Positions 1-36,144 of a stretch of DNA of 64,000 nt are shown in pieces. How positions within the stretch are numbered: position 1 is the stretch's first letter; the number at the start of each line of letters is the position of its first letter. This stretch comes from Candidatus Shapirobacteria bacterium (GTDB lineage: Bacteria > Patescibacteriota > Microgenomatia > UBA12405). The translations under genes and the position numbers were made by a program. A model generated the notes under the pieces. That model was not told the DNA's origin. It worked only from the letters and a program-made list of their open reading frames with translations, and ran no database searches. The stretch is from NCBI GenBank assembly GCA_041659325.1, contig JBAZYN010000001.1, positions 131,428-195,427 on the forward strand. Direction: 5' to 3'.

Positions 1-1206
1 CACTAAATTTGCCACTTTAATCCCCTCCCGTACGGCATAATTTGTTCCTCTGTCTTCCGGAAATATTTGAGCAAAGTTCGCAGAATATACTTTGACTTTG
101 TTTAATTCGTAATTCGTAATTGGTAATTGAAAATTAGTTGTTACCACATGCTGGGCGTTTTTAAATCTAAACAAAAATTTTTTAATAATCTTTTTCCTGT
201 CAAACTCGGGATATATCTTTTTCAAATAATCAAAAAATTCGTTATAAACATTTTCGTCACTTTCGGTAAATAACTTATGATCATGAGGTATATATGCTCC
301 CATATAATAAACAAAATCACCCCCATATTGACAATACCCCACAAGGTTAGTGTGTTGGATAAACGCCAAAAAGGGGGACTCAATATCATTGATATTATGC
401 CAATAGTATTGACTCAAATTTTGTTTCGACGTAAATACTACGTTAACCGCCCCCAAATAATCAATTCCTTTTGACGGAATCGTCGATATCACCGCATCGT
501 AATCTTTTATATCCTGCTTCAAATCAGCATGTACAATTTTAGTCTTTGTTTTGATAACTCCACCCATTTTTGTAATTTCTCCTCGCAATCTATCAATAAT
601 CAGCCCAAACCCCCCATCCATGTACCCCAATCTTTCTTTCCCGTCGGCATCCTTCGACCCGCCCCGGGTATGAATCCGAGCCCACAACCAGGCCATCGAC
701 ACTCGCTTGTATTTATCACCAAACTTTCCGACCAAAAGTGGCTTCCAAACTACCTGGTAGGCTCTCTCTCCGCACCACTTTTTCATCCATTTATAAGCCG
801 GGGTTTTCAAATATTTTTTCCACTTAATATCTTTTTGAAGATAAACTGCAGCCAGTCCCATTCTGATTTTGTCAACAATTCCCAAAGGTTTAAATTTTAA
901 AAGATCAATCGGGGTGACAAACGGATACATTTTACCGTCGTAGTAGAGCCCAATCGAGCTTTCATACCACCTTAAGCGGTTAGCCAATCCCAATTCCCGA
1001 ATCAGTTCTATGATTGATTTGTCGGTTCTAAAGATGTGGTGGTAGGTTTTTTCAAGATAATAATCGTTTATCCTAAAACTGCCCAGTAGTCCACCTAGTT
1101 CACATTCCTTTTCGGCCACTGTTACTGAAATTTCATTTTTAGCCAATTCATAGGCCGCAGTTAAACCGGTCAGTCCTCCGCCGATTATCAAAATTTTTTT
1201 CTTCAT
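1..1206 (-). CDS. FAD/NAD(P)-binding oxidoreductase (amine oxidase / phytoene desaturase / protoporphyrinogen oxidase-like), 3' end truncated by window edge
   Basis: Own translation of the minus strand from the ATG at 1206: MKKKILIIGGGLTGLTAAYELAKNEISVTVAEKECELGGLLGSF... This is a classic GxGxxG Rossmann dinucleotide-binding N-terminus. The frame stays open to position 1. It was missed by the ORF track because there is no stop in the window. Confidence 0.7.
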   Translation of the reverse strand, partial: MKKKILIIGGGLTGLTAAYELAKNEISVTVAEKECELGGLLGSFRINDYYLEKTYHHIFRTDKSIIELIRELGLANRLRWYESSIGLYYDGKMYPFVTPIDLLKFKPLGIVDKIRMGLAAVYLQKDIKWKKYLKTPAYKWMKKWCGERAYQVVWKPLLVGKFGDKYKRVSMAWLWARIHTRGGSKDADGKERLGYMDGGFGLIIDRLRGEITKMGGVIKTKTKIVHADLKQDIKDYDAVISTIPSKGIDYLGAVNVVFTSKQNLSQYYWHNINDIESPFLAFIQHTNLVGYCQYGGDFVYYMGAYIPHDHKLFTESDENVYNEFFDYLKKIYPEFDRKKIIKKFLFRFKNAQHVVTTNFQLPITNYELNKVKVYSANFAQIFPEDRGTNYAVREGIKVANLV

Positions 1207-1358
1207 TTTTCTATTTGTAAATTTATTATCTCACTGATATCATATAACGATATTTGTCGTAATGTTTGCCTCAAATCAAAGTAAATGACAATCCGCCGTA
1301 AGGCGGGTATTATTTCTTAATACGATATCAGATATATTTAATTTAAGATTAAACAAAA

Positions 1359-3467
1359 ATGGCCGAAGCTATAAAACTAAGTAAAAACAGAGATGTCTCT
1401 ATGGACAAAGTCAGGAATATTGGGATTATTGCTCATATTGATGGGGGGAAGACAACTACCACTGAACGGATTCTTTTCTATACCGGCAAAATCCACAAAA
1501 TCGGCTCCGTCGACGAAGGCACCACCACCACCGACTCTATGGTGCAGGAGAGAGAGAGAGGTATCACTATTCAATCGGCCTGCATTACCACTTTTTGGCA
1601 CGATTATCGTTTCAATATTATCGATACTCCCGGGCACGTTGATTTTACCGCCGAGGTCGAAAGATCTCTTCGCGTTCTCGATGGCGCCATCATGATCTTC
1701 GATGGTAATGCCGGTGTCCAGGCCCAATCAGAAACTGTTTGGCGTCAAGCCGGAAAGTACGGCGTACCCCGCCTGGCTTTTATAAACAAAATGGACAAAA
1801 TTGGTGCCTCCTTTGAAGGTACTCTCAAAAGTATTCATGATAAACTGCATGCCCCCGTTGTTCCGGTGGTCGTACCGATTGGTGAAGAGCATGCTTTTGT
1901 CGGCATAATTGACCTCATGAACCAAAAAATGATTGTTTACGACAAAGACGATCAGGGTATGGAATTTACCGTTAAAGACGTCAGCCCTGAGTACAAAGAT
2001 CTGGTTGCAAAATACAGAAGCCTGATGGTTGAAAAAATTGCCTGCGAAGACGAGGCTCTTATGGAAAAATTCTTAAACGACCAGGAAATTAGCGTCGCCG
2101 AATTAAAAGCCACCCTCAGGAAGGCCACCATTGCTCAAAGACTATTTCCGCTCTACTGCGGGGCTGCCTGGAGAAACAAAGGCATCCATCCCATCCTTGA
2201 TGGCATAGTTGATTATTTACCCTCCCCGCTTGACCTCCCGCCCGTAGAAGGATTTGATATCAATACCCACGAAAAAATACTTCGTAAGCCGATTAAAACT
2301 GAATATTTATCCGCTCTTCTTTTTAAGGTTCAGTCCGATGCTCATGTAGGTACTCTTTCTTATGTTCGGGTGTACTCCGGAACCATCAAAACGGGGATGG
2401 AGGTCTACAATACCACCAAGCAAAAAACCGAAAGAATAGGACGTATATTGTTAATGCATGCCGACAAAAGAGAAGGTATCGAAGAGGGTTACGCCGGCGA
2501 GATTGTTGCCTGTATAGGTTTAAAAGAGTCGACCACCGGGGATACCCTTTGCGACAAAGATCATATTATTTCTCTTTCCCCCATCCAATTTTCTGAACCT
2601 GTTATCTCCTTATCGATCGAGCCGGAAACTGCCGACGATCAGGAAAAAATGGGTGCCGCTCTCAACCGCCTGTCGTCTGAAGATCCTACCTTCAGAGTCA
2701 GCTACAACCACGAAACCGGTCAAACTATTATTGCCGGTATGGGTGAATTATATTTGGAGATAATAGTTGACCGTTTGCGTCGGGAATTTGGAGTCAATGT
2801 TAAAACTGGAGCTCCCCAGGTCGCCTATCGTGAAACAATTAGCCTCAACGCAGAGGGAGAAGGTAAATATATCCATCAATCAGGTGGTCATGGTCAATAC
2901 GGCCACTGTAAAATCAGGGTTGAGCCAAAAAATCGCAGTGAAGGTATCGAATTTGTGAACGCCGTTAAAGGCGGTGCCATCCCTTCAAACTTTATTCCGG
3001 CAATCGAAAAGGGTGTCCGTGAAACTTTACAAAAGGGAATAATTGCCGGTTATCCCTGTACCGATATAAAGGTAACCGTCTACGATGGTACCTATCATGA
3101 CGTAGACTCTTCAGAAATGTCCTTCAAGCTAGCCGGTTCTTTTGCCATCAAAGACGCTTTTGTCCAAGCCAAGCCCTTAGTCCTAGAACCGATTATGAAG
3201 TTCGAGGTGGCCACCCCCTCAGAATTTTTGGGCACGGTCATCGGTGATCTTTCTTCCCGTCGTGGACAAATCATCGGAACTTCTGAGACTTTTGGTTTTA
3301 CCACTGTAAATGCTTTTATCCCCCTCGAAGAGGTTAGAGGTTATGCTACAGTTATTAGAAGTTTAACCCAGGGCAGGGGATCATTTTATATGGAACCCTC
3401 CCACTACGATCCTGTCCCCCGTGATGTTCAGGAGAAGTTGACCACCAAGACTCAAGCCGGTAAATAA
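1359..3467 (+). CDS. fusA: elongation factor G
   Basis: 702 aa. It carries a G-domain (AHIDGGKTT, DTPGHVDF, NKMD) and EF-G domains II-V. Confidence 0.95.
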   Translation: MAEAIKLSKNRDVSMDKVRNIGIIAHIDGGKTTTTERILFYTGKIHKIGSVDEGTTTTDSMVQERERGITIQSACITTFWHDYRFNIIDTPGHVDFTAEVERSLRVLDGAIMIFDGNAGVQAQSETVWRQAGKYGVPRLAFINKMDKIGASFEGTLKSIHDKLHAPVVPVVVPIGEEHAFVGIIDLMNQKMIVYDKDDQGMEFTVKDVSPEYKDLVAKYRSLMVEKIACEDEALMEKFLNDQEISVAELKATLRKATIAQRLFPLYCGAAWRNKGIHPILDGIVDYLPSPLDLPPVEGFDINTHEKILRKPIKTEYLSALLFKVQSDAHVGTLSYVRVYSGTIKTGMEVYNTTKQKTERIGRILLMHADKREGIEEGYAGEIVACIGLKESTTGDTLCDKDHIISLSPIQFSEPVISLSIEPETADDQEKMGAALNRLSSEDPTFRVSYNHETGQTIIAGMGELYLEIIVDRLRREFGVNVKTGAPQVAYRETISLNAEGEGKYIHQSGGHGQYGHCKIRVEPKNRSEGIEFVNAVKGGAIPSNFIPAIEKGVRETLQKGIIAGYPCTDIKVTVYDGTYHDVDSSEMSFKLAGSFAIKDAFVQAKPLVLEPIMKFEVATPSEFLGTVIGDLSSRRGQIIGTSETFGFTTVNAFIPLEEVRGYATVIRSLTQGRGSFYMEPSHYDPVPRDVQEKLTTKTQAGK

Positions 3468-3489
3468 TTATTAGTTATATATAAAAAAT

Positions 3490-3900
3490 ATGGCTTATCC
3501 TACCGAGATGTTACGAGAAGCAGTTAAATATTTAAGAGTTCATACTGGTAGATGTTATGACGACCGTGGGGATGAGTGGCCAAGATATGACGATGGTCCT
3601 GTTGTTTCAACTGCTGATAGTCTCGCCCGACGTCTTGAAGAACTTGCTGCCCATCCTGATAATTACAGTAAACCTCCAATAATTCAAATAAGTACCCGAC
3701 CCGGATTTGGATCTACTGCACACTCCCCTCAACAAGCGGTAGAATCTCTAAGGTGTGCGGCAGATGTTATTTCTTCCGTTCTAATAGTAGCAAGCCTCCC
3801 AATTCGAAGAGTTCAGTCTTCTCCTCAAGAAATTAATGAAGGCAGATCTCCCTACTTGATTGAAGTTGACCTACGGGAACTATCAATTACAAATCCATAA
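3490..3900 (+). CDS. hypothetical protein (ORFan inserted between fusA and tuf)
   Basis: 136-aa ORF with no recognisable motif. It is followed by a 130-nt AT-rich spacer and an AAGGAG SD before tuf. Its Arg-rich composition is atypical for neighbouring genes. Confidence 0.4.
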   Translation: MAYPTEMLREAVKYLRVHTGRCYDDRGDEWPRYDDGPVVSTADSLARRLEELAAHPDNYSKPPIIQISTRPGFGSTAHSPQQAVESLRCAADVISSVLIVASLPIRRVQSSPQEINEGRSPYLIEVDLRELSITNP

Positions 3901-4030
3901 ATGCAAATTTGCTCGATACTCCGCCTTGCAAACGGAAAATTAAGCTGATACAATTCTAAAGCGTTTTAAGCTAAAATTAAAATATTACATATTCGTCCAA
4001 AAGACACAAACAAACAAAAAAGGAGACACA

Positions 4031-5206
4031 ATGGCAGCAGATACATATAAAAGGTCCAAGCCGCACGTTAATGTAGGTACTATTGGTCACGTCGACCATG
4101 GGAAAACAACCTTAAGTGCAGCAATCGCGAAAGTTCAGGGGAATCCAAAATCATATGCCGATATAGCCAAAGGCGGAACTGTTAGAGATGCCAATAAAAT
4201 CGTCACTATCGCAATTTCTCATATCGAATACGAAACAGAAAAAAGACACTATGCCCACATTGACTGTCCTGGTCATGCTGATTATGTCAAAAACATGATT
4301 ACCGGTGCTGCTCAAATGGATGGTGCAATTCTGGTAGTTTCCGCTCCGGACGGCCCAATGCCGCAAACCCGCGAACACGTCCTTTTAGCCAAACAGGTAA
4401 ACGTCCCCAATCTAGTCGTATTTTTAAATAAAGTCGATTTAGTTTCCGACCCAGAATTTTTAGATTTGGTGGAAATGGAAATCCGCGATCTTTTAACCAA
4501 GTACGGCTATCCAGGTAGTGAAATCCCTATTATTCGTGGCTCTGCCCTGAAAGCCCTAAATGGTGATGCCGAAGGTGTTGAGTCCATCAAGAAACTCATG
4601 GAAGCTCTCGATACTTATATCCCTGAGCCAAAACGTGAACTGGACAAACCTTTCCTTATGCCTATCGAAGATGTCTTCTCTATCAAAGGTAGAGGCACTG
4701 TCGCAACCGGTAGAATCGAAAGGGGAATAGTCAAGATCAACGAAGAAGTCGAAATTGTCGGCCTAAGGCCAACCAAGAAGTGTGTTATAACCGGTGTCGA
4801 AATGTTTCACAAAATTCTTGATCAGGGGCAAGCTGGCGACAATGTCGGTCTTTTACTCCGCGGTGTTGAAAAAGATGATATCGAAAGAGGGCAAGTATTG
4901 GCCAAAGGTGGCACAATTACTCCTCACACAGAATTTAAAGCCCAAGTTCTTTTACTCAAAAAAGAAGAAGGCGGCCGCCACACCCCGGTTTTCACCGGCT
5001 ATCGTCCTCAAGTCTTTATTAGAACTACCGATGTTACCGGCGATGTCAAATTACCCGAAGGTATGGAAATGGTCATGCCCGGTGACAATGCCAATGTTGT
5101 TATTACCCTAATTAAACCGGTTGCTATGGAAGTTGGTTTCCGCTTCGCTATCCGTGAAGGTGGACTTACCGTCGGTGCTGGTTCTATTACAGAAATTATC
5201 AAGTAA
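4031..5206 (+). CDS. tuf: elongation factor Tu
   Basis: 391 aa with [17 protein letters not shown] and NKVD motifs. An AAGGAGA SD sits upstream. Confidence 0.97.
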
Positions 5207-5209
5207 AAA

Positions 5210-5521
5210 ATGACCAAAGGTAGCCGCATCCGCATTAGACTAAAATCATTTGATCATCGTATCATTGATGAAGCCGCCTCCAAAATAGTTGAGGTTGCGG
5301 TTACCGCCGGAGCTCATGTTCAGGGGCCTATTCCTCTTCCTACAGACAGGAAAATTATCACTGTGCTGACTAGTCCCCACACAGACAAAAACGCCCGGGA
5401 TCATTTCCAGGTGCTTACCCACAAACGCCTTATCGATATCTCCAATACCAGTTTGAGAACTGTCGATAGCCTTCAGCATTTAGATCTTCCCTCCGGCGTT
5501 GAAGTAGAAGTTAAGATGTAA
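5210..5521 (+). CDS. rpsJ: 30S ribosomal protein S10
   Basis: 103 aa. IRIRLKSFDHRIID...TSPHTDKNARDHFQ is a typical S10 sequence. It is the first gene of the S10 operon. Confidence 0.95.
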   Translation: MTKGSRIRIRLKSFDHRIIDEAASKIVEVAVTAGAHVQGPIPLPTDRKIITVLTSPHTDKNARDHFQVLTHKRLIDISNTSLRTVDSLQHLDLPSGVEVEVKM

Positions 5522-5523
5522 TT

Positions 5524-6147
5524 ATGATCTCAGGCTTCATTGCAAAAAAAGGTCCCATGACCAGCGTCTTTACTGAAAACGGCAAAAGAATTGGTGTTTC
5601 CAAGCTGATTGCCGCTCCTCTCACGGTGACCCAAATAAAAACACCCCAAAAGGATGGTTATCCGGCCATCCAGATTGCCTATGGTTCAAGAAAAAAAATC
5701 ACCAACAAGGCGGTTTCCTCCAAGATTACAAAATTAAAATTAGATATTACTCCAAAAGGCTTTAAAGAATTTGAAGTGGTATCTGACCAAATTCCTGAAA
5801 TTGGAAAGGAGATCGCAATCGACTCGGTTTTTTCTGTAGGTGATACGGTAAAAGTGACCGGGGTAACCAAGGGACACGGTTTTTCCGGTGTCATCAAAAG
5901 GCACGGTTTCCATCGTCAACCTGTTTCTGGCGGTCAATCTGACAGAGTCAGGGCTCCGGGTTCCATCGGTGCTCAAACCCCCGGCAAAGTTTTAAAAGGA
6001 AAAAAGATGCCCGGTCATTTCGGAAACACCCAAAAAAGTGTCCTAAATTTAAAAATAGTATCCATCAATCCAGAAACCTCAGAAATCACCCTAAGTGGCT
6101 CTGTTCCCGGTTCTTACAACTCCTGGGTAATTATTTCAAAAAGCTAA
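5524..6147 (+). CDS. rplC: 50S ribosomal protein L3
   Basis: 207 aa. L3 signatures (GxTKGHGFSGVIKRH...Q) and operon position. Confidence 0.95.
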   Translation: MISGFIAKKGPMTSVFTENGKRIGVSKLIAAPLTVTQIKTPQKDGYPAIQIAYGSRKKITNKAVSSKITKLKLDITPKGFKEFEVVSDQIPEIGKEIAIDSVFSVGDTVKVTGVTKGHGFSGVIKRHGFHRQPVSGGQSDRVRAPGSIGAQTPGKVLKGKKMPGHFGNTQKSVLNLKIVSINPETSEITLSGSVPGSYNSWVIISKS

Positions 6148-23143: not shown

Positions 23144-23146
23144 CGG

Positions 23147-23220
23147 TCGGGGTTACTGGATTCGAACCAGCAACCTCACGGACCCCATCCGTGCGCGCTA
23201 GCCAATTGCGCCAAACCCCG
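23147..23220 (-). tRNA. tRNA-Pro (anticodon GGG)
   Basis: Manual fold of the minus strand: acceptor CGGGGTT/AACCCCG, D-arm GCGC-AATTGGCTA-GCGC, anticodon arm CACGG-AT GGG GT-CCGTG, variable AGGTT, T-arm GCTGG-TTCGAAT-CCAGT, discriminator A. 74 nt. Confidence 0.85.
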
Positions 23221-27254: not shown

Positions 27255-27890
27255 ATGAATAAAGTTTGTATAGTTTTGGGATATGGCATATTTTTACCGC
27301 CGAACCCCGAATACCAATTGTACTTTGAAAAAGCCCTAAAGCTCTGTCTTCAAGCCAAAGCTACATCAATAATAATCTGTGGCGGATGTAGCAACAAAGA
27401 TCACCCCGGTCTTTCAGAGGCCTCCAGTATTGCGAAATTGTTTACCGATTTGCACCCGGGGATAGAAAAATCAATTATTTGTGAAGACAAGTCCCTTACC
27501 ACTATCCAAAACCTGGAATTTTCCCACAACAGAATAAAAGCCACTGGCCAAGCCCTGGAGAAAATTACCATAATTTGCGATAGTATTCGGGTTCCAAAAG
27601 TTTTTACTTTATCACTGGAGTTGTTTGCAGATATCCTAAATTTTAAATTATCAGAAGAAGATCGTCTAAACATACTTCAGGATATATATCTTGGTCAAGA
27701 TCCGAATTTGGTTAGAGAAATTTCATTTGTTTATCAAAACCTCGAGGTAAAAGGCATCCCATTATCTCAATCACCCCAAATTGTGTCCTATCAAATCATT
27801 TCTTCCATGTGGGAAATGCGTGCCTTAAAATATCCAAAATTGCACCAAAAGTTCATAAACTGGCGGAAAAAGAAGTGGGGAATTAGCTAA
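27255..27890 (+). CDS. DUF218 (YdcF/ElyC/SanA-like) domain protein
   Basis: The ORF-track start (27126) overlaps hup. The ATG at 27255 gives MNKVCIVLGYG...IIICGGCSNKDHPGLSEASSIAKLF, which matches the DUF218 pattern. Confidence 0.55.
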   Translation: MNKVCIVLGYGIFLPPNPEYQLYFEKALKLCLQAKATSIIICGGCSNKDHPGLSEASSIAKLFTDLHPGIEKSIICEDKSLTTIQNLEFSHNRIKATGQALEKITIICDSIRVPKVFTLSLELFADILNFKLSEEDRLNILQDIYLGQDPNLVREISFVYQNLEVKGIPLSQSPQIVSYQIISSMWEMRALKYPKLHQKFINWRKKKWGIS

Positions 27891-27930: not shown

Positions 27931-30393
27931 ATGGATTACATAACGTGGCATTATAGCCAAGGTGTCAGGATATACCTTCAGTCCCTGCTGCTTAACCTTA
28001 AAAAGGTATCTCACTTTTTTTCTTTGACGTTATTGCTCAAGACCTTATTTTCTCCCTGGAAGAGAATGATTAGTAGCAGTTATTTAGGTTTCAATTTTCA
28101 AAAAATGTTTGAAAACCTGACCTTCAACCTCATCTCAGTGTGGGTTGGTTTTTCCGCCAGATTAATCTTAATTTTTATTTGTTTTCTCAGCCTGCTGTTT
28201 TTATTGGCCGGTGGGGTAATTGGCTTGCTGATATTCTTAATGTTTCCTTTTTTTGGTTATTCAACCTATATAAATCAAGAAAAACAAAAAAAGCAGTCAT
28301 TTCAAAATTTAATAAAAAGTACCATTGAAAATCCCGATAAAGCCGGTCTCCTGCTAATCAATTCACTTTTTGGGAATTTTTTTATTCTTCATTTAAGCCT
28401 AAATGACGATCTGATAAACCTAATTAGTCAGGCTAAAATTGATCCCCTAAAAACAGACATGCCGTCCCTGTCTTCATTTGAAGACTACTTGAAATCGCTG
28501 TTGTCTGGCATAGACCAATTTGAGGATAATTTGAGAACTTTTGGCCTGAACAAAGATGACCTAATAAAAACTGCCCGTTGGTGGGATTTAATCTGCGATA
28601 AAAATACCCAAATATCCAAGCAACACGAAAACTTAGGTAAGCCCGGAATTGGAGCAAATCTTTTGGTTGGATATAGTCCAAAACTCGATAAATGTTGCGA
28701 AAACCTTAATATAAGCGATCAGCTTTCCCACAGTCTCATCGGTAGGTCTACTCTTGTAAACCGAATAAAAAATGTTATCGAGTCAGGTCGTAATATTATT
28801 TTAGTCGGCCAGCCCGGAGTTGGAAAAATGACGGTTGTCTTTGAATTCACTCACAAAGCTATAACCGGACAGCTCGGTAGTTTCTTCGTAAATAAACGCG
28901 TGCTAAGGCTTGATTACCAATTAATTCTTTCCCATGGGAGTCTTGAAGAAAAAAGACTCGCCATCAAACAATTATTAATCGAAGCCAAAACAGCCGGCGA
29001 TATAATCCTCGTCATCAAGGAATTTCATCGTTTAGTTAATTCAGACGCCGGTTACGATTTTATTGATATATTTACAGAAATTTTTGATCATCTAAAAATT
29101 CCAGTAATTGCTCTTACCAACAGTGTTGAATATCAACGCTTTATTTCCCGTGATTTCAGAATTAATAAATATTTTGAAATTATCGAGGTTCTCCCTCCAA
29201 ACAAAGATGAATCATTGGATATAATTTTCTATTCAGCCTGGGATAAAGAAAACACGGGTGGAATAGCCTTCACGACTCAAGCGCTCAAGCAGATCCTGAA
29301 TGCTTCAGATCGCTATATAACCGACACTCCTTTTCCCGAAAAAGCCATTGAGCTTATTGACGAATTAGCCACAGGTAAAATTTCTTCCGGCCAGTCGCTT
29401 GTTACTTTGGAGGATGTCAACGAAGTTATTTCTCAAAAAACCAAAATTCCTCTGGCCCGGTTGACGGAATCAGAGAAAAAACAGCTTTCTGATCTGGAAA
29501 ATATTATTCATCGGGAGCTAATCAACCAGGAAGCGGCCGTCTCACTCATAGCTAAAAGCTTGCGTAATCGTTCTGTAGGTCTTAAAGACGAAAATAGGCC
29601 AATAGGCTCATTTTTATTTTTAGGTCCGACCGGGGTTGGCAAGACACAAACTGCAAAGGTTTTGTCCAAAGTTTATTACGGGCCAGATACCAAAATTTTA
29701 AGATTTGATATGGCTGAATATGCCGGCAACGAAGGGATTGCCCGCCTTATTGGATCAATAAGCCAAAATCAACCGGGCGTGCTTACTTCAGCCATAAAAA
29801 ATAACCCGGCTTCGCTTTTGTTATTCGACGAAATTGAAAAAGCCCCACCTGAAATCATCAACCTATTCTTAACCTTACTGGACGAAGGTTATCTAACAGA
29901 TGTTTTTGGCCAAAAAATTAAATGCAGTCATTTATTTGTTATCGCCACCTCCAATGCCGGTGCCGAATTTATCAGACAGTCGGTAAACAAGGGAATAAAG
30001 GATTACCAGCTCCAAAAAAATGTTCTCGAACATGTTCAGCAAGAAAAAATATTCTCACCCGAGTTTTTAAACCGTTTCGACGGGGTAGTGGTTTTCGAGC
30101 CCTTGTCTCCCAAAAATTTGGTAAAAATCACCAATCTTATGCTCGGCGATCTTCAAAAAAATCTTAATTTACGAAATATTTTTCTTGAATTTGATAATAA
30201 AGTCGCAGAAAAGATTGTTGATGAAAACTATGACATGTCTCTTGGGGCCAGACCTATCCGGAGAGTCATCGACCTGGTTCTCTCCGATATTATAAGTCAG
30301 GCAATACTAAACAATACAATCAATCTCGGTGACAAGATAATGATTACTACCGGCGCAGAAAAAGACCAATACCTTTGGTCAAAAGTTGAATAA
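27931..30393 (+). CDS. membrane-anchored double-AAA+ ATPase, ClpA/ClpB/ClpC family
   Basis: 820 aa. The N-terminus has ~2-3 TM helices. D1 is GQPGVGKMT with a degenerate Walker B (ILVIKEF, D->K). D2 is GPTGVGKTQTAK with LLLFDEIEKA and a sensor-2 GARPIRR in a ClpB-like D2-small domain. Confidence 0.75.
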   Translation: MDYITWHYSQGVRIYLQSLLLNLKKVSHFFSLTLLLKTLFSPWKRMISSSYLGFNFQKMFENLTFNLISVWVGFSARLILIFICFLSLLFLLAGGVIGLLIFLMFPFFGYSTYINQEKQKKQSFQNLIKSTIENPDKAGLLLINSLFGNFFILHLSLNDDLINLISQAKIDPLKTDMPSLSSFEDYLKSLLSGIDQFEDNLRTFGLNKDDLIKTARWWDLICDKNTQISKQHENLGKPGIGANLLVGYSPKLDKCCENLNISDQLSHSLIGRSTLVNRIKNVIESGRNIILVGQPGVGKMTVVFEFTHKAITGQLGSFFVNKRVLRLDYQLILSHGSLEEKRLAIKQLLIEAKTAGDIILVIKEFHRLVNSDAGYDFIDIFTEIFDHLKIPVIALTNSVEYQRFISRDFRINKYFEIIEVLPPNKDESLDIIFYSAWDKENTGGIAFTTQALKQILNASDRYITDTPFPEKAIELIDELATGKISSGQSLVTLEDVNEVISQKTKIPLARLTESEKKQLSDLENIIHRELINQEAAVSLIAKSLRNRSVGLKDENRPIGSFLFLGPTGVGKTQTAKVLSKVYYGPDTKILRFDMAEYAGNEGIARLIGSISQNQPGVLTSAIKNNPASLLLFDEIEKAPPEIINLFLTLLDEGYLTDVFGQKIKCSHLFVIATSNAGAEFIRQSVNKGIKDYQLQKNVLEHVQQEKIFSPEFLNRFDGVVVFEPLSPKNLVKITNLMLGDLQKNLNLRNIFLEFDNKVAEKIVDENYDMSLGARPIRRVIDLVLSDIISQAILNNTINLGDKIMITTGAEKDQYLWSKVE

Positions 30394-30484
30394 TCTACTC
30401 AAAGTTAAACACCTAGTTATCTCCAGTTAACGCCGAAAAACTTTCCTGTTAAATTCCCTAAACAAACATATTATATAATCAACC

Positions 30485-32434
30485 ATGGATGAAACAGATA
30501 TATCAATCCCGTACGGCGCTAATTTTAATCCCGACCATCATGATCGTGTGGCAATCCGGGTAACGGATGGAGCGGTTATGGGATGGGAACAAGTTCCCAA
30601 GGATGATAGGCTACCTCCATATGTTCAGCTTTCTAGAGAAGTTAGAACGGTATTAAGTCAATCAGTCGAAAAAAATGGTTGGCCGGAATTGCCAAATAGA
30701 ATTGAAAGTGTAGAATCTTTGTTTGAAAAAGCCTCTGAAGCTGTAGCCCGGACTTGGCAAGCGGAATTACTGGGGGATAACGGTCTTTTTCAAAATAAAT
30801 GCATAGAATGGGCTGAAAACATTACCGGGGATTCTTATGAAGCCAAATCCGCACGGGCTCTATTACTTGATGCAGGTCAATTAGAAACTAAGTTACGGAT
30901 TCGTCAGTTCGGTTCATTAGAATCGATAAAAAGCACTAATCCTGAAATCTGGCGGTGCTTAATTCTGACCTCTTCAGAAAGACAATCAGCAGGGCTAACT
31001 TTAGTCCGGCATTGGTTGAAAGCTGTTCCAGAAGAACAAATGAGTCAGTTTGGTATGAGTAAGAACGAACTAAATTTATTTTTAGATATCGCAGGGGTTG
31101 TTGGTAAATATATTGATCATGCCTATATTAAACAAATCGAACTGGCCGGGGCACCCGGTGGATCAAGTGTTTCCCCAAATAGAAATATCAAGGGGGCAGA
31201 ATTTTTATATGACGTCAACGGGAAAGATGGCCCAATCTTACCTTTTATAGATGTTTTTCCCGAAGAGCTTACTCGCCTGGTTGACGGAATAAAAATGTTG
31301 GCCGATAAAACGGAATTAATGGTTGACTCCGGTCAATTACCTGCAGATAAATATCAAGGGGCTGCAGATTATTTACGTCAGTTTGCCGATGTATACGCGT
31401 CTACAAATACTCGTTCCAAAGTCAATGATGATCCCGAAGAACTCGAAGAAAAAGAGGTAGCCGGGGAATATGAAAGATTAATTGAAAAGGGTTTTAGGCT
31501 ATTATCCTCTGGTTGTCCGATTGCTTTAATTCCCCAAGGCACCCCGTCACACGCCGGAGAAGCTTATAAAGTTGATTTGGAAATAAGACTTGCTTCTAGA
31601 ACAGAAGAAACCCAAAAAATAGATGATGAGTTAAAAGAGTTAGTTCCTCACGCCCAAACCCTTGTCGATAGCCATATTGATATTTTAGACAAGCCTTATC
31701 GCCTTCCTGATCAGATAATAACCTTCCAGCCTTTCGCTTTCGGCCCCAACACTTTTTGGTACACAAGAGGAGACTCGATAGCAACGAGCGAAGGAGGTGC
31801 AATTATTACTCACTCGAATGCAGTTGAAGATGTGGCAAAAACCCAAAATTTACCCGTCCTGGGAAGAGTTTTTAATTACCATCCGGATTCAGCAGAATAT
31901 TCAAAAGCAGAAATTGTCGAAACAGTGGCCCATGAAATTGCTCATTGTGTTATGGGTACCGATGATAAAAATGTCAATGAAAGGATTGGTCAACTTAGTG
32001 AATCAGAAATTGTTGAGGAATTAAAAGCCGAAACTGTCGCTATGAAATTATTATGGGAAACCAAATTAAAAAGTGCTGATAGTCAGACAATAGAACTGCA
32101 ATTTATGGCCAAAGTAGCCACCCTATGTGATTATCTAAAAAATAAATCAGCCTCATTGGATGATGCTGGCGCTCCATATTACTATTGCGGAGTTGCAATT
32201 ATTTCCGAATTGCTCAATCAGGGGATTATTGTTGGCGAAGGAGAGGGGTATCGGGTTACTGATTGTAGAAAAGGCTGTGAAGTAATCGCCGCAATGGGGG
32301 ATAATATCCTGAATAAGTTTTATTTTAATCCTGAAACTAAACCGGAAAATGTTCAAAAATACGTTGTTTCAGACGTTACCTCAAAGACCAATGATAATGA
32401 TTTCCAAAAATTTTTAAGTGTAATAAAACAATAA
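30485..32434 (+). CDS. hypothetical large acidic protein with HExxH motif (putative zinc metallopeptidase-like)
   Basis: 649 aa with no TM or signal peptide. VAHEIAHCVMG (HExxH) lies at ~aa 477 with downstream Glu residues. No other recognisable domain. There is no SD upstream. Confidence 0.6.
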   Translation: MDETDISIPYGANFNPDHHDRVAIRVTDGAVMGWEQVPKDDRLPPYVQLSREVRTVLSQSVEKNGWPELPNRIESVESLFEKASEAVARTWQAELLGDNGLFQNKCIEWAENITGDSYEAKSARALLLDAGQLETKLRIRQFGSLESIKSTNPEIWRCLILTSSERQSAGLTLVRHWLKAVPEEQMSQFGMSKNELNLFLDIAGVVGKYIDHAYIKQIELAGAPGGSSVSPNRNIKGAEFLYDVNGKDGPILPFIDVFPEELTRLVDGIKMLADKTELMVDSGQLPADKYQGAADYLRQFADVYASTNTRSKVNDDPEELEEKEVAGEYERLIEKGFRLLSSGCPIALIPQGTPSHAGEAYKVDLEIRLASRTEETQKIDDELKELVPHAQTLVDSHIDILDKPYRLPDQIITFQPFAFGPNTFWYTRGDSIATSEGGAIITHSNAVEDVAKTQNLPVLGRVFNYHPDSAEYSKAEIVETVAHEIAHCVMGTDDKNVNERIGQLSESEIVEELKAETVAMKLLWETKLKSADSQTIELQFMAKVATLCDYLKNKSASLDDAGAPYYYCGVAIISELLNQGIIVGEGEGYRVTDCRKGCEVIAAMGDNILNKFYFNPETKPENVQKYVVSDVTSKTNDNDFQKFLSVIKQ

Positions 32435-32465: not shown

Positions 32466-33536
32466 ATGAAATTATCCATCGGCATCGTCGGCCTGCCAAA
32501 TGTTGGGAAGTCAACCCTTTTTAACGCCCTTCTGGGGAAACAAGTCGCCGATGCCAGTAATTATCCCTTTTGCACCATCGATCCCAATGTTGGGGTGGTG
32601 GCTGTGCCCGACGACAAATTGTCGGTACTTGCGCAAATTGTAAAAACCGACAAAATTGTTCCCGCCGCCGTTGAATTCGTTGATATTGCCGGATTGGTCA
32701 AGGGCGCCGGCAACGGTGAAGGGTTGGGGAATAAATTTTTAACCAATATCCGTGAATGCGAAGCTATTTGCCACGTCGTTCGAAACTTTTCCGACCCAAA
32801 TATTATCCGTGAAGGTTCAGTTGATCCTCAGGGAGATTTTGAAGTAATTTGTACCGAGCTGATTATCAAAGATCTCGAGACAATCGATAAATACATTGAT
32901 CAAAACAAAAATAATGCAATTGAAAAAAATAGTAAAAAATTTACTCTAGCCCAAAAAATCAAATCCGAATTGGAAAAAGGACTACTGGCCGTTAATTTAG
33001 CCTTAAGCGATAAAGAAAAAGACATATTGAAAGAATTTTTCCTCCTAACCGCCAAGCCATATTTTATTGTTGCCAATGTCAACGAAAACATATATAAAAG
33101 CATTACCAATTACCGGTTACCAATTACCGATTACCAAAGTGTCATCCCGATTTCTGCCAAAATAGAATTCGAGCTTTCAGAGCTATCCCCGGAAGATCGC
33201 GAAAACTATCTTTTGGAATTGGGAGTCAAAAAATCAGGCCTCGAGAGAGTTATCCAAAAAGCATACGAGACTCTTGGCCTCCAGTCATACTACACTGCGG
33301 GTATCAAAGAAGCTCGGGCGTGGACAATTTACCAAGGCGCTTCCGCCCCTCAGGCCGCCGGTGCCATCCATACCGATTTTGAAAGGGGCTTTATTATGGC
33401 CGAAATTGTATCTTTTGATGATTTTGTAAAATACGGTGGCTGGCAGGGTGCCAAAGATGCCGGCAAGCTCCGCCACGAGGGCAAAGAATACATTATGCAC
33501 CCCGACGATGTAGTTGAGTTTCGTTTTAATGTTTAA
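32466..33536 (+). CDS. ychF: ribosome-binding ATPase YchF (Obg-like GTPase family)
   Basis: 356 aa. GIVGLPNVGKSTLFNAL G1, NYPFCTIDPNVG and a C-terminal TGS domain. TATAAT lies ~10 nt upstream of the ATG (possibly leaderless). Confidence 0.93.
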   Translation: MKLSIGIVGLPNVGKSTLFNALLGKQVADASNYPFCTIDPNVGVVAVPDDKLSVLAQIVKTDKIVPAAVEFVDIAGLVKGAGNGEGLGNKFLTNIRECEAICHVVRNFSDPNIIREGSVDPQGDFEVICTELIIKDLETIDKYIDQNKNNAIEKNSKKFTLAQKIKSELEKGLLAVNLALSDKEKDILKEFFLLTAKPYFIVANVNENIYKSITNYRLPITDYQSVIPISAKIEFELSELSPEDRENYLLELGVKKSGLERVIQKAYETLGLQSYYTAGIKEARAWTIYQGASAPQAAGAIHTDFERGFIMAEIVSFDDFVKYGGWQGAKDAGKLRHEGKEYIMHPDDVVEFRFNV

Positions 33537-35654: not shown

Positions 35655-35948
35655 AAAACTCCGGACAAACTGTTAAGCCGATTTCTGTTTATGGGTTATC
35701 AATCTAGTCTCTTTACCTGGAGCTCCCAAAAACAAGGTACAAACGCCCCAATTTAAGATTTCCACCAGAAGGATGCTCGTTCCACCTCAGTCGACTGCAA
35801 CCTTTCGGCACAGAAGACGTCCTCGTCTCTATAGCATTGCCTTTAGCTTACGCCAAACCCTAATCTTCGGGTTCTGTGTTTTTTGTGGTTCGGACTTTCC
35901 TGCCCCCGCTGTTGCGGGAGCCAAACCCCTCAGTTTCTCCGGAGTTAG
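35655..35948 (-). ncRNA. rnpB: RNase P RNA (bacterial type, compact ~285 nt)
   Basis: Minus-strand read. P1 is CTCCGGAGAAACTG...CAGTTTGTCCGGAG (14 bp). P2 is GGGTT/AACCC. P3 is CTCCCGC-AACA-GCGGGGG. The P4 5' strand is AGGAAAGTCCG and the P4 3' strand is ACAGAAATCGGCTTA. The pyrimidine-rich plus strand contains only a spurious ORF. Confidence 0.7.
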
Positions 35949-35967
35949 TTTATTTTACACTCAAACA

Positions 35968-36144
35968 CTACTGAAGCAAAGCCGCATCAGCAGCAGAAAG
36001 AATCTTAAACATCTTTGTTCCGGTTTCCGGATCAACTGCTTCAGCAGCTGGTCTACCGTTTTTAAGCATTACCTTCTTTACCTTGCTTACGTCAACTTCG
36101 ACTGATTTTCTCGATTTGACGGAATAAAATTTAATAGTTGGCAT
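35968..36144 (-). CDS. hypothetical small basic protein (58 aa) upstream of rnpB
   Basis: Own translation: MPTIKFYSVKSRKSVEVDVSKVKKVMLKNGRPAAEAVDPETGTKMFKILSAADAALLQ. It is preceded by AGGAGGTGAAAGAAG-ATG, the strongest SD in the window. Not in the ORF track. Confidence 0.5.
   Translation of the reverse strand: MPTIKFYSVKSRKSVEVDVSKVKKVMLKNGRPAAEAVDPETGTKMFKILSAADAALLQ

Follow-up and report, generated by a model that had tools for sequence, protein, structure and literature searches.

We analysed a 64-kb stretch of DNA from Candidatus Shapirobacteria (the window; all coordinates are positions within it) and focused on two adjacent forward-strand open reading frames (ORFs). Gene 1 (27931..30393) encodes a membrane-anchored protein of 820 amino acids (aa) with two AAA+ modules derived from the Hsp100/Clp family, as assigned from the ORF list, Pfam, NCBIfam and an alignment to ClpC. 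Gene 2 (30485..32434) encodes an acidic, cytoplasmic protein of 649 aa whose predicted two-lobe metallopeptidase fold resembles that of dipeptidyl peptidase III (DPP III, family M49). Both ORFs called in a first-pass annotation of the sequence are real, at these coordinates. With moderate confidence we favour the explanation that they are two separately evolved neighbours and not a fixed unfoldase-protease machine, gene 1 being a remodeller and gene 2 a DPP III-like metalloenzyme.

The Clp-type D1 and D2 modules that the first-pass annotation had recognised in gene 1 were recovered by Pfam, NCBIfam and the ClpC alignment. Pfam matched AAA_2 (residues 556-717), AAA_lid_9 (441-524), ClpB_D2-small (725-805) and a second AAA stretch in D1, and the best matches among PDB sequences were ClpC, ClpE and ClpB (E about 1e-90). 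Motifs were read by residue-level alignment to ClpC, and their status in the family was taken from an alignment of about 96 relatives. Judging from these residues, D1 is a degenerate module that is probably non-hydrolysing. Its Walker A (28807..28833) reads GQPGVGKMT, with Met replacing the Mg-binding Thr/Ser (GK[K/M/R]T in the family, GR in some members), and its Walker B (29002..29025) reads IILVIKEF, with Lys replacing the first acidic residue ([K/R][D/E] family-wide). The D1 Arg finger is missing family-wide (RINKYFE in gene 1 vs ALxRRF). The degenerate IKEF had been noticed at the outset, and D1 proves to be further degraded than was claimed then. The ATPase elements of D2 are fully conserved throughout the family: Walker A (29623..29649; GPTGVGKTQ), Walker B (29815..29844; LLLFDEIEKA), sensor-2 (30244-30264; GARPIRR) and the Arg finger (FLNRFD) are all canonical.

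The most important feature of gene 1, overlooked in the first reading, is the loss of both aromatic pore loops. The D1 pore-loop position (28921..28968) reads LILSHGSLEEKRLAIK and contains SHGSLE instead of the KYR aromatic motif, and at the D2 position (29743..29790) GYVG is removed by a four-residue deletion (RLIGS----ISQNQPGVLTS). Neither set of pore-loop aromatics occurs in any of the about 96 family members, and the D2 deletion is found in every one of them as well as in a sister group of ATPases, the L110 type, described below. We also looked for the ClpP-binding IGF/LGF loop that the first-pass annotation had raised. The equivalent of the ClpP-docking loop (29950..30036; …VNKGIKDY…) has no [ILV]G[FL] tripeptide in gene 1 or in any of the about 96 relatives, and ClpC residues about 422-467, which form the M-domain, have no counterpart in gene 1. 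Because pore loops, ClpP-docking loop and M-domain are missing family-wide, gene 1 is, on its motifs, neither a ClpP partner nor a canonical unfoldase, and its earlier description as unfoldase-like does not stand. The mechanism accepted for Hsp100 proteins is one in which substrate is threaded through mobile pore loops (PMC6593972).

Membrane anchoring, also proposed at first, was borne out by a strongly hydrophobic segment near the N-terminus of gene 1. Residues 1-61 (27931..28113) form a conserved domain with the family consensus W.Y..G...Y....FS...LLKTLFSPWKR...GF, which takes the form of two helices and a loop in the predicted model. The first 45 residues are conserved, with W6, Y8, Y15, F30, P42 and W43 invariant in the family. 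Because these residues are conserved, the 820-aa start is the correct one and the 775-aa JGI call is too short. The membrane segment itself (about residues 62-110, 28114..28260; motif FNLISr.IGa.VR ... W...P) reaches a Kyte-Doolittle peak of 1.9-2.7, and its hydrophobic stretch of about 45 residues could be either a single long transmembrane (TM) helix or a helical hairpin. It is followed by an all-alpha region (residues ~120-240, 28288..28650): in a model of residues 1-440 (predicted local distance difference test score, pLDDT, 78), a long hydrophobic helix is followed by 7-8 helices ahead of D1. Foldseek alignments of gene 1 grow from ~198 to ~320-357 columns for Clp chains with a resolved N-domain, and Pfam gave no Clp_N match in gene 1 at E <= 10, residues 110-262 included. 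The helices and the longer Foldseek alignments hint that the membrane module may precede a degenerate helical region resembling an N-domain (residues about 120-230) rather than replace the N-domain, as the first-pass annotation had it.

The family of gene 1 is large and comprises over 100 clusters in Patescibacteria. When one genome per GTDB species was scanned specifically for it, 79 loci emerged, many of them from generic 'uncultured' records of metagenome-assembled genomes. Those whose records name a lineage are nearly all Patescibacteria (Woese-, Shapiro-, Ames-, Beckwith- and Gottesmanbacteria), and more distant family members occur in Portnoy-, Berkel-, Saccharibacteria and Sungbacteria. 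The neighbours of gene 1 homologues differ by clade and include glycosyltransferase/GH57 genes, Kbl/Tdh and SOD. In 8 loci the gene immediately upstream is FtsH, and about 10 loci (range L008-L086) carry the membrane Clp-like ATPase as a tandem pair of paralogues; hetero-oligomers or a link to FtsH are possible. The 597-aa homologue in the relative L042 (P0229) contains a masked run of N at ~4530-4640; we considered an N-terminal truncation of this protein and rejected it, as the conserved N-terminus sits upstream of the N gap.

Gene 1 was also compared with characterised AAA+ systems. It shares with ClpC, ClpA and ClpB the tandem AAA+ modules, AAA_lid_9, ClpB_D2-small and the canonical D2 Walker A and B, Arg finger and sensor-2. 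Unlike them it has an N-terminal membrane domain and a degenerate D1 Walker A, Walker B and Arg finger, lacks KYR, GYVG, the ClpP loop and the M-domain, and scores only about one third of the NCBIfam equivalog cut-offs (364.7 bits vs 993 for ClpA, 363.4 vs 1232 for ClpB and 269.6 vs 885 for ClpV). FtsH is likewise an AAA+ ring tethered by N-terminal hydrophobic helices, if gene 1 forms a ring as we expect. In FtsH a single AAA module, which has an aromatic pore loop, is fused to an M41 HExxH protease, whereas the HExxH protein of the present locus is separate and has an unrelated, M49-like fold, and gene 1 lacks the pore-loop aromatics. Torsins are AAA+ proteins of the eukaryotic endoplasmic reticulum and nuclear envelope, kin of the Clp/Hsp100 D2 clade and without aromatic pore-loop residues; they are lumenal, have a single AAA module and no Arg finger of their own, and are thought to remodel rather than thread. 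Gene 1 would resemble torsins in being membrane-associated, akin to the D2 clade and devoid of pore-loop aromatics, and would differ in keeping the D2 Arg finger and carrying a D1 that is probably dead. A literature search found no description of a membrane-anchored, pore-loop-less Clp protein in bacteria of the candidate phyla radiation (CPR).

Gene 2 had been described as an acidic ORFan with a single HExxH and no recognisable domain. Its isoelectric point is 4.78, it has one HExxH (residues 483-487), and as a single query it matched nothing in Pfam, NCBIfam or PDB sequences; weak matches to PDS5, Zincin_1 and Aminopep were sub-threshold and discarded. The term ORFan is wrong, since a word-indexed search found 8 relatives and a full profile search 221 representatives at 50% clustering. 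The organism-named relatives (n=3) are all Patescibacteria. Residue conservation was counted in an 81-sequence family alignment. The pentapeptide metal and catalytic motif HEIAH (31931..31945) is nearly invariant (H483 in 79/81, E484 in 81/81, H487 in 80/81), as is the second motif EELKAE (residues 511-516, 32015..32032; E512 in 80/81, K514 in 77/81), which corresponds to the M49 signature EEXR(K)AE(D). With HExxH and E512 conserved in 79-81 of 81 sequences, the HExxH does not look like a chance occurrence, and E512 is the likely third metal ligand. The gluzincin arrangement proposed at first, an HExxH with a downstream Glu, is thereby upheld as a His-His-Glu site.

The relationship of gene 2 to DPP III emerged from the family profile, which matched the sequences of 5zum (E 5.4e-6) and 6eom (E 0.022). 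In the profile alignment HExxH falls onto HELMH/HEISH and EELKAE onto EEAKAD/EECKAD of the solved DPP IIIs. The predicted model of gene 2 likewise shows the two lobes of the DPP III fold, one containing a beta-sheet and the other helical and catalytic. The structural check suggested by the first-pass annotation therefore came out in favour of a metallopeptidase fold, that of DPP III/M49, and against its thermolysin-, M48- or anti-sigma-factor-like candidates. The M49 family is defined by HEXXGH (or HEXXH) together with EEXR(K)AE(D) (PMC9820243), and the Corallococcus (CoDPP III, 5zum) and Caldithrix abyssi (CaDPP III, 6eom) enzymes are its characterised atypical members with a pentapeptide motif (PMC9820243, PMC5805324). 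Gene 2 has in common with these two enzymes the fold, the pentapeptide HExxH, EExKA[ED], a profile match across the catalytic region and an association with NUDIX hydrolases. It differs from them in being only ~12-14% identical and ~100 residues longer, in an inter-motif spacer that is 4 residues shorter and in one catalytic residue. Pfam Peptidase_M49 gave no match at E <= 0.1 with gene 2 or at E <= 1 with 10 distant relatives, and a literature search found no description of this DPP III-like family. Three distant family members (P0150, P0151 and P0154) have weak, sub-threshold Pfam matches to DUF7897 (E 5e-4 to 8e-3), a catalogued family of unknown function (profile length 595) that may be related; P0154 also has a C-terminal GNAT acetyltransferase domain.

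The differing catalytic residue is a His. In CoDPP III, His465 and the zinc stabilise the scissile carbonyl (PMC9820243), and the counterpart of this His in yeast DPP III is His578 (PMC12614342); published CoDPP III numbering equals PDB chain numbering + 27, as derived from the alignment. Glu245, Tyr247 and Asn326 of CoDPP III are the residues that anchor the N-terminus of its substrate. Tyr565 of gene 2 (32177..32179) aligns with His465, and the position is Tyr in 78/81 family members and His in 2/81. Because Tyr in the oxyanion role is common among other zincins, peptidase chemistry is plausible for gene 2 by analogy despite the substitution.

Gene 2 homologues are found in many unrelated genomic contexts. 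Six family contexts obtained by exact look-ups contained no Clp gene and three more had none adjacent; a metagenome scan with a 9-sequence gene 2 alignment added 46 further loci. In 6 loci (L088, L089, L090, L099, L101 and L119) the neighbourhood of the gene 2 homologue includes a NUDIX hydrolase gene. These neighbours echo the NUDIX-DPP III fusions known in the pentapeptide subgroup and found in plants (PMC5805324, PMC9820243), and we count them in favour of the DPP III identity; the C. abyssi DPP III itself carries a 'MutT/NUDIX' annotation. One homologue adjoins HSP20 (L004). In another contig (L133, 5308-8719) DUF218 genes lie on both sides of the gene 2 homologue, and beyond this contig and the window we found no co-occurrence of DUF218 and gene 2 at BLAST sensitivity. 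A distant 717-aa relative (L135, 1-10421) sits among Nramp, MgtE, TerC, Fe-SOD, Fur and ZIP genes, a metal-homeostasis neighbourhood that may hint at metal-dependent regulation.

We then asked how far the pairing extends in relatives. The first-pass annotation had proposed a dedicated membrane-associated module, which would be syntenic in relatives. A search with 15 diverse queries, covering at most 10 kb per side, found a gene 2-family member at 0/79 ATPase loci, and a Clp gene is missing from most gene 2 loci, so that in most relatives the proposal fails by the refuting condition set for it at the outset. In the window the pair is set among housekeeping genes, in the order recA, recX, rny, HU, DUF218, gene 1, gene 2, ychF, miaA, AI-2E permease. 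In the relative L008 a gap of 34 nt separates gene 1 from ychF, behind which lie miaA and the AI-2E permease, and there is no gene 2. The relative L042 has recA-recX-rny-HU-gene 1, a 199-aa HD-domain gene and ychF, again with no gene 2; the DUF218 gene found upstream of gene 1 in the window (27255..27890, + strand) is missing there. Because the closest relatives hold the same backbone without it, gene 2 has been inserted between gene 1 and ychF, where the junction is variable; ychF (32466..33536, + strand) forms its downstream flank.

The spacer between the two genes (30394..30484, + strand) is consistent with this picture. Its length of 91 nt and its lack of a purine-rich Shine-Dalgarno (SD)-like run, both given in the first-pass annotation, are correct. 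It holds no + strand terminator, and Rfam found no RNA element in it. A perfect TATAAT lies at 30474-30479, with 5 nt between the end of the box and the gene 2 ATG. Since this box is so close to the ATG and the spacer has no SD, the sequence suggests that gene 2 may have a promoter of its own and, possibly, a leaderless mRNA.

The part of the earlier proposal that survives is the adjacency itself, which recurs in a second CPR lineage. In four contigs of one clade (L101, L104, L108 and L110; L130 is identical to L110) an ATPase of 816 aa is directly followed by a gene 2 homologue, except that L104 has one extra ORF between the two. In L110 the ATPase (1198-3648) and the gene 2 homologue (3648-5555) share a stop/start overlap. 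Two TM helices stand at the N-terminus of this L110-type ATPase; its D1 Walker B is degenerate (GN), and it lacks an Arg finger, pore-loop aromatics and a ClpP loop. It is nearest to distant members of the gene 1 superfamily (37-41% identity, e.g. a Ryanbacteria protein), and its subfamily is Patescibacteria/Kazan. A membrane protein of 86-116 aa always precedes it (five loci: L101 554-877, L110 873-1196, L136 358-618, L137 4658-4990 and L138 4612-4962). In L101, L110, L136 and L137 the C-terminal half of this protein matches the gene 1 membrane segment (hidden Markov model searches against small databases, E 3e-4 to 4e-7); hhalign assigned this match a probability of 82%, against 0.6% for a reversed control. 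The L138 protein gave no match at E <= 10 and is alike by eye only. The occurrence of the membrane domain both fused and separate suggests fission or fusion of the N-domain within this ATPase superfamily.

In this lineage, too, the pairing is not universal. Members of the same ATPase subfamily in L136, L137 and L138 have no gene 2; a 574-aa gene behind the L137 ATPase was tested as a gene 2 relative and rejected. L136 keeps the flanks seen in L110 (small protein-ATPase-70-aa gene-RecO) without gene 2, so the homologue in the L110 lineage also looks inserted right behind the ATPase. In a neighbour-joining tree gene 2 of the window is not sister to the L110 clade, and L103, within the L110 clade of that tree, has no ATPase neighbour. 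Other genes also occupy the ATPase 3' junction: a sortase, a gene for a secreted protein and the HD-domain gene. The two genes have thus become neighbours in two CPR lineages, but facultatively, and they do not form a conserved module.

A facultative functional module remains the best of the competing explanations, and we rate it as possible and on balance unlikely. In it the membrane ATPase and the DPP III-like enzyme cooperate in at least two CPR lineages, the ATPase ring either remodelling or releasing membrane proteins or peptides for trimming, or recruiting or activating the peptidase at the membrane. The two adjacencies share their orientation, involve non-sister gene 2 copies and both look like gains directly 3' of the ATPase, and the two ATPases belong, as divergent members, to one superfamily and have in common the D2 deletion and an N-domain or small membrane partner. 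In the L110 clade the pairing is retained among gene 2 copies that are 64-81% identical, and the HSP20 neighbour in L004 points the same way as the stop/start overlap. However, the complete absence of gene 2 from the surveyed ATPase loci, the unpaired L103, L136, L137 and L138 and the unrelated genes at the same junction all speak against a functional bond. Stop/start overlaps are common between unrelated genes in this compact genome (e.g. recA/recX and miaA/AI-2E), the ATPase lacks pore loops for polypeptide delivery, and characterised DPP IIIs cut short peptides, with no AAA+ partner reported in PMC9820243 or PMC5805324.

Some points nevertheless weigh against the favoured explanation of separately evolved neighbours. 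Gene 2 has independently come to lie at this kind of site twice, more often than a naive chance model would have it: by a rough estimate the model predicts ~0.04-0.1 adjacency events among roughly 30 independent contexts, and 2 were observed. Because the ATPase 3' junction is a turnover site that hosts unrelated genes, this statistic is weakened, and high turnover there could still explain the recurrence. Another point concerns gene 2, whose chemistry is uncertain given Tyr in place of the catalytic His and the missing Pfam M49 score.

Another explanation, which we regard as doubtful, is that gene 2 is a DPP III-fold metalloenzyme of other chemistry, acting like PolE and other DUF6421 proteins on an amino acid or small non-ribosomal peptide. 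PolE is an Fe(II)/pterin-dependent oxidase of a free amino acid with a DPP III fold, and DUF6421 is mainly actinobacterial (PMC12614342). DUF6421 proteins have HE/DxxH-X(21-23)-E and no DPP III catalytic His (PMC12614342), and the gene 2 family also lacks that His; set against the DUF6421 spacing, E/D511 of gene 2 follows after 23 and the near-invariant E512 after 24 intervening residues. In 7 loci (L002, L006, L098, L107, L116, L121 and L123) the gene 2 homologue belongs to a recurrent cluster in which it is accompanied by an unknown gene of 457 aa, two ATP-grasp genes (a double ligase of 807 aa and one of 444 aa), an Orn/DAP/Arg decarboxylase and, at times, methyltransferases; the cluster looks like a small-peptide or amino-acid modification pathway. 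Gene 2 resembles PolE/DUF6421 in its fold, its HExxH...E triad, its lost His and such amino-acid-modifying neighbourhoods, whereas PolE is only 370 aa long and the named gene 2 relatives are all Patescibacteria. The gene 2 profile matches DPP III sequences and no PolE chain even at E <= 10, and there is no Pfam DUF6421 match. Position 565 is Tyr or His, both typical zincin oxyanion stabilisers. CPR fermenters are generally not known to have pterin synthesis or O2-dependent metabolism, which we also count against this explanation. Finally, the second motif, EExKAE, is the M49 signature (PMC9820243).

An anti-phage defence or toxin-like system, pairing an AAA+ ATPase with a metallopeptidase effector, is very improbable and was rejected, because the PADLOC matches of gene 1 and the L110 ATPase (DolB and PDC-M37B, E 1e-24 to 1e-35), the main support for it beside the variable junction, are confined to the generic AAA module of Clp-D2 and fall far short of the ClpA/ClpB scores, while gene 2, its L110 homologue and the 107-aa protein match no defence family and gene 1, a core gene found across CPR, is syntenic and sits amid housekeeping genes.

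Under the favoured explanation of two separate neighbours, gene 1 would assemble into a ring powered by D2 on the cytoplasmic side of the membrane. It would serve as a remodelling or assembly factor by way of the conserved membrane domain at its N-terminus, without threading substrate into a protease, a role that we infer from the elements missing in the protein. Gene 2 would bind zinc by H483, H487 and E512, with E484 as the general base and Tyr565 as the oxyanion stabiliser, and would trim short oligopeptides in the cleft between its lobes. The substrates of DPP III are peptides 3-10 residues long, on which it works in the last steps of peptide turnover in the cytosol (PMC9820243), and gene 2 might likewise serve end-stage peptide turnover or peptide salvage in an auxotrophic CPR cell. 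Because a closing cleft of the DPP III type takes peptides of about 3-10 residues (PMC9820243), and not unfolded proteins delivered by a ring, the analogy argues against a coupled machine like ClpAP or FtsH. Gene 2 would have been inserted at the variable gene 1/ychF junction, perhaps with its own promoter, and its link to gene 1 would most likely be co-expression in a proteostasis context. Its placement beside proteostasis genes, in two ATPase lineages and next to HSP20 in L004, is compatible with co-regulation. A bolder extension, to which we assign a low probability, is that the Patescibacteria membrane Hsp100 is a new non-threading AAA+ machine functionally analogous to torsins, with a dead D1, a live D2 and a small membrane domain that is fused or separate, and that in some lineages it recruits enzymes encoded downstream, including a new family of DPP III-fold peptidases, to act on membrane-associated substrates.

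Elsewhere in the window, a tRNA-Pro(GGG) gene (23145-23220, - strand) lies just upstream of recA and is the sole tRNA of the 64 kb. RNase P RNA (35663-35940, - strand) is best matched by the archaeal model RF00373 and not by a bacterial type (99.6 bits vs a gathering score of 84, covering the whole model, 1-288). A 110-aa ORF (35773-36105) that overlaps it is probably spurious.

These findings bear on both families. The gene 2 family bridges the DPP III (M49) peptidases and the DUF6421 Fe/pterin oxidases, with His replaced by Tyr at the catalytic position, and offers a good example for studying changes of chemistry within a single fold; for gene 2, the label 'hypothetical' can now give way to DPP III-like. 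Of the two families, that of the ATPase holds more interest. Gene 1 stands for an Hsp100/Clp branch, widespread and uncharacterised, that has lost exactly the elements critical for threading, kept a complete D2 ATPase and gained a membrane domain, and its annotations as 'ClpA/ClpC, ATP-dependent Clp protease subunit' are probably misleading. Its function would probe to what extent the mechanics of Hsp100 lend themselves to new uses and would illuminate the minimal membrane and proteostasis biology of CPR bacteria.

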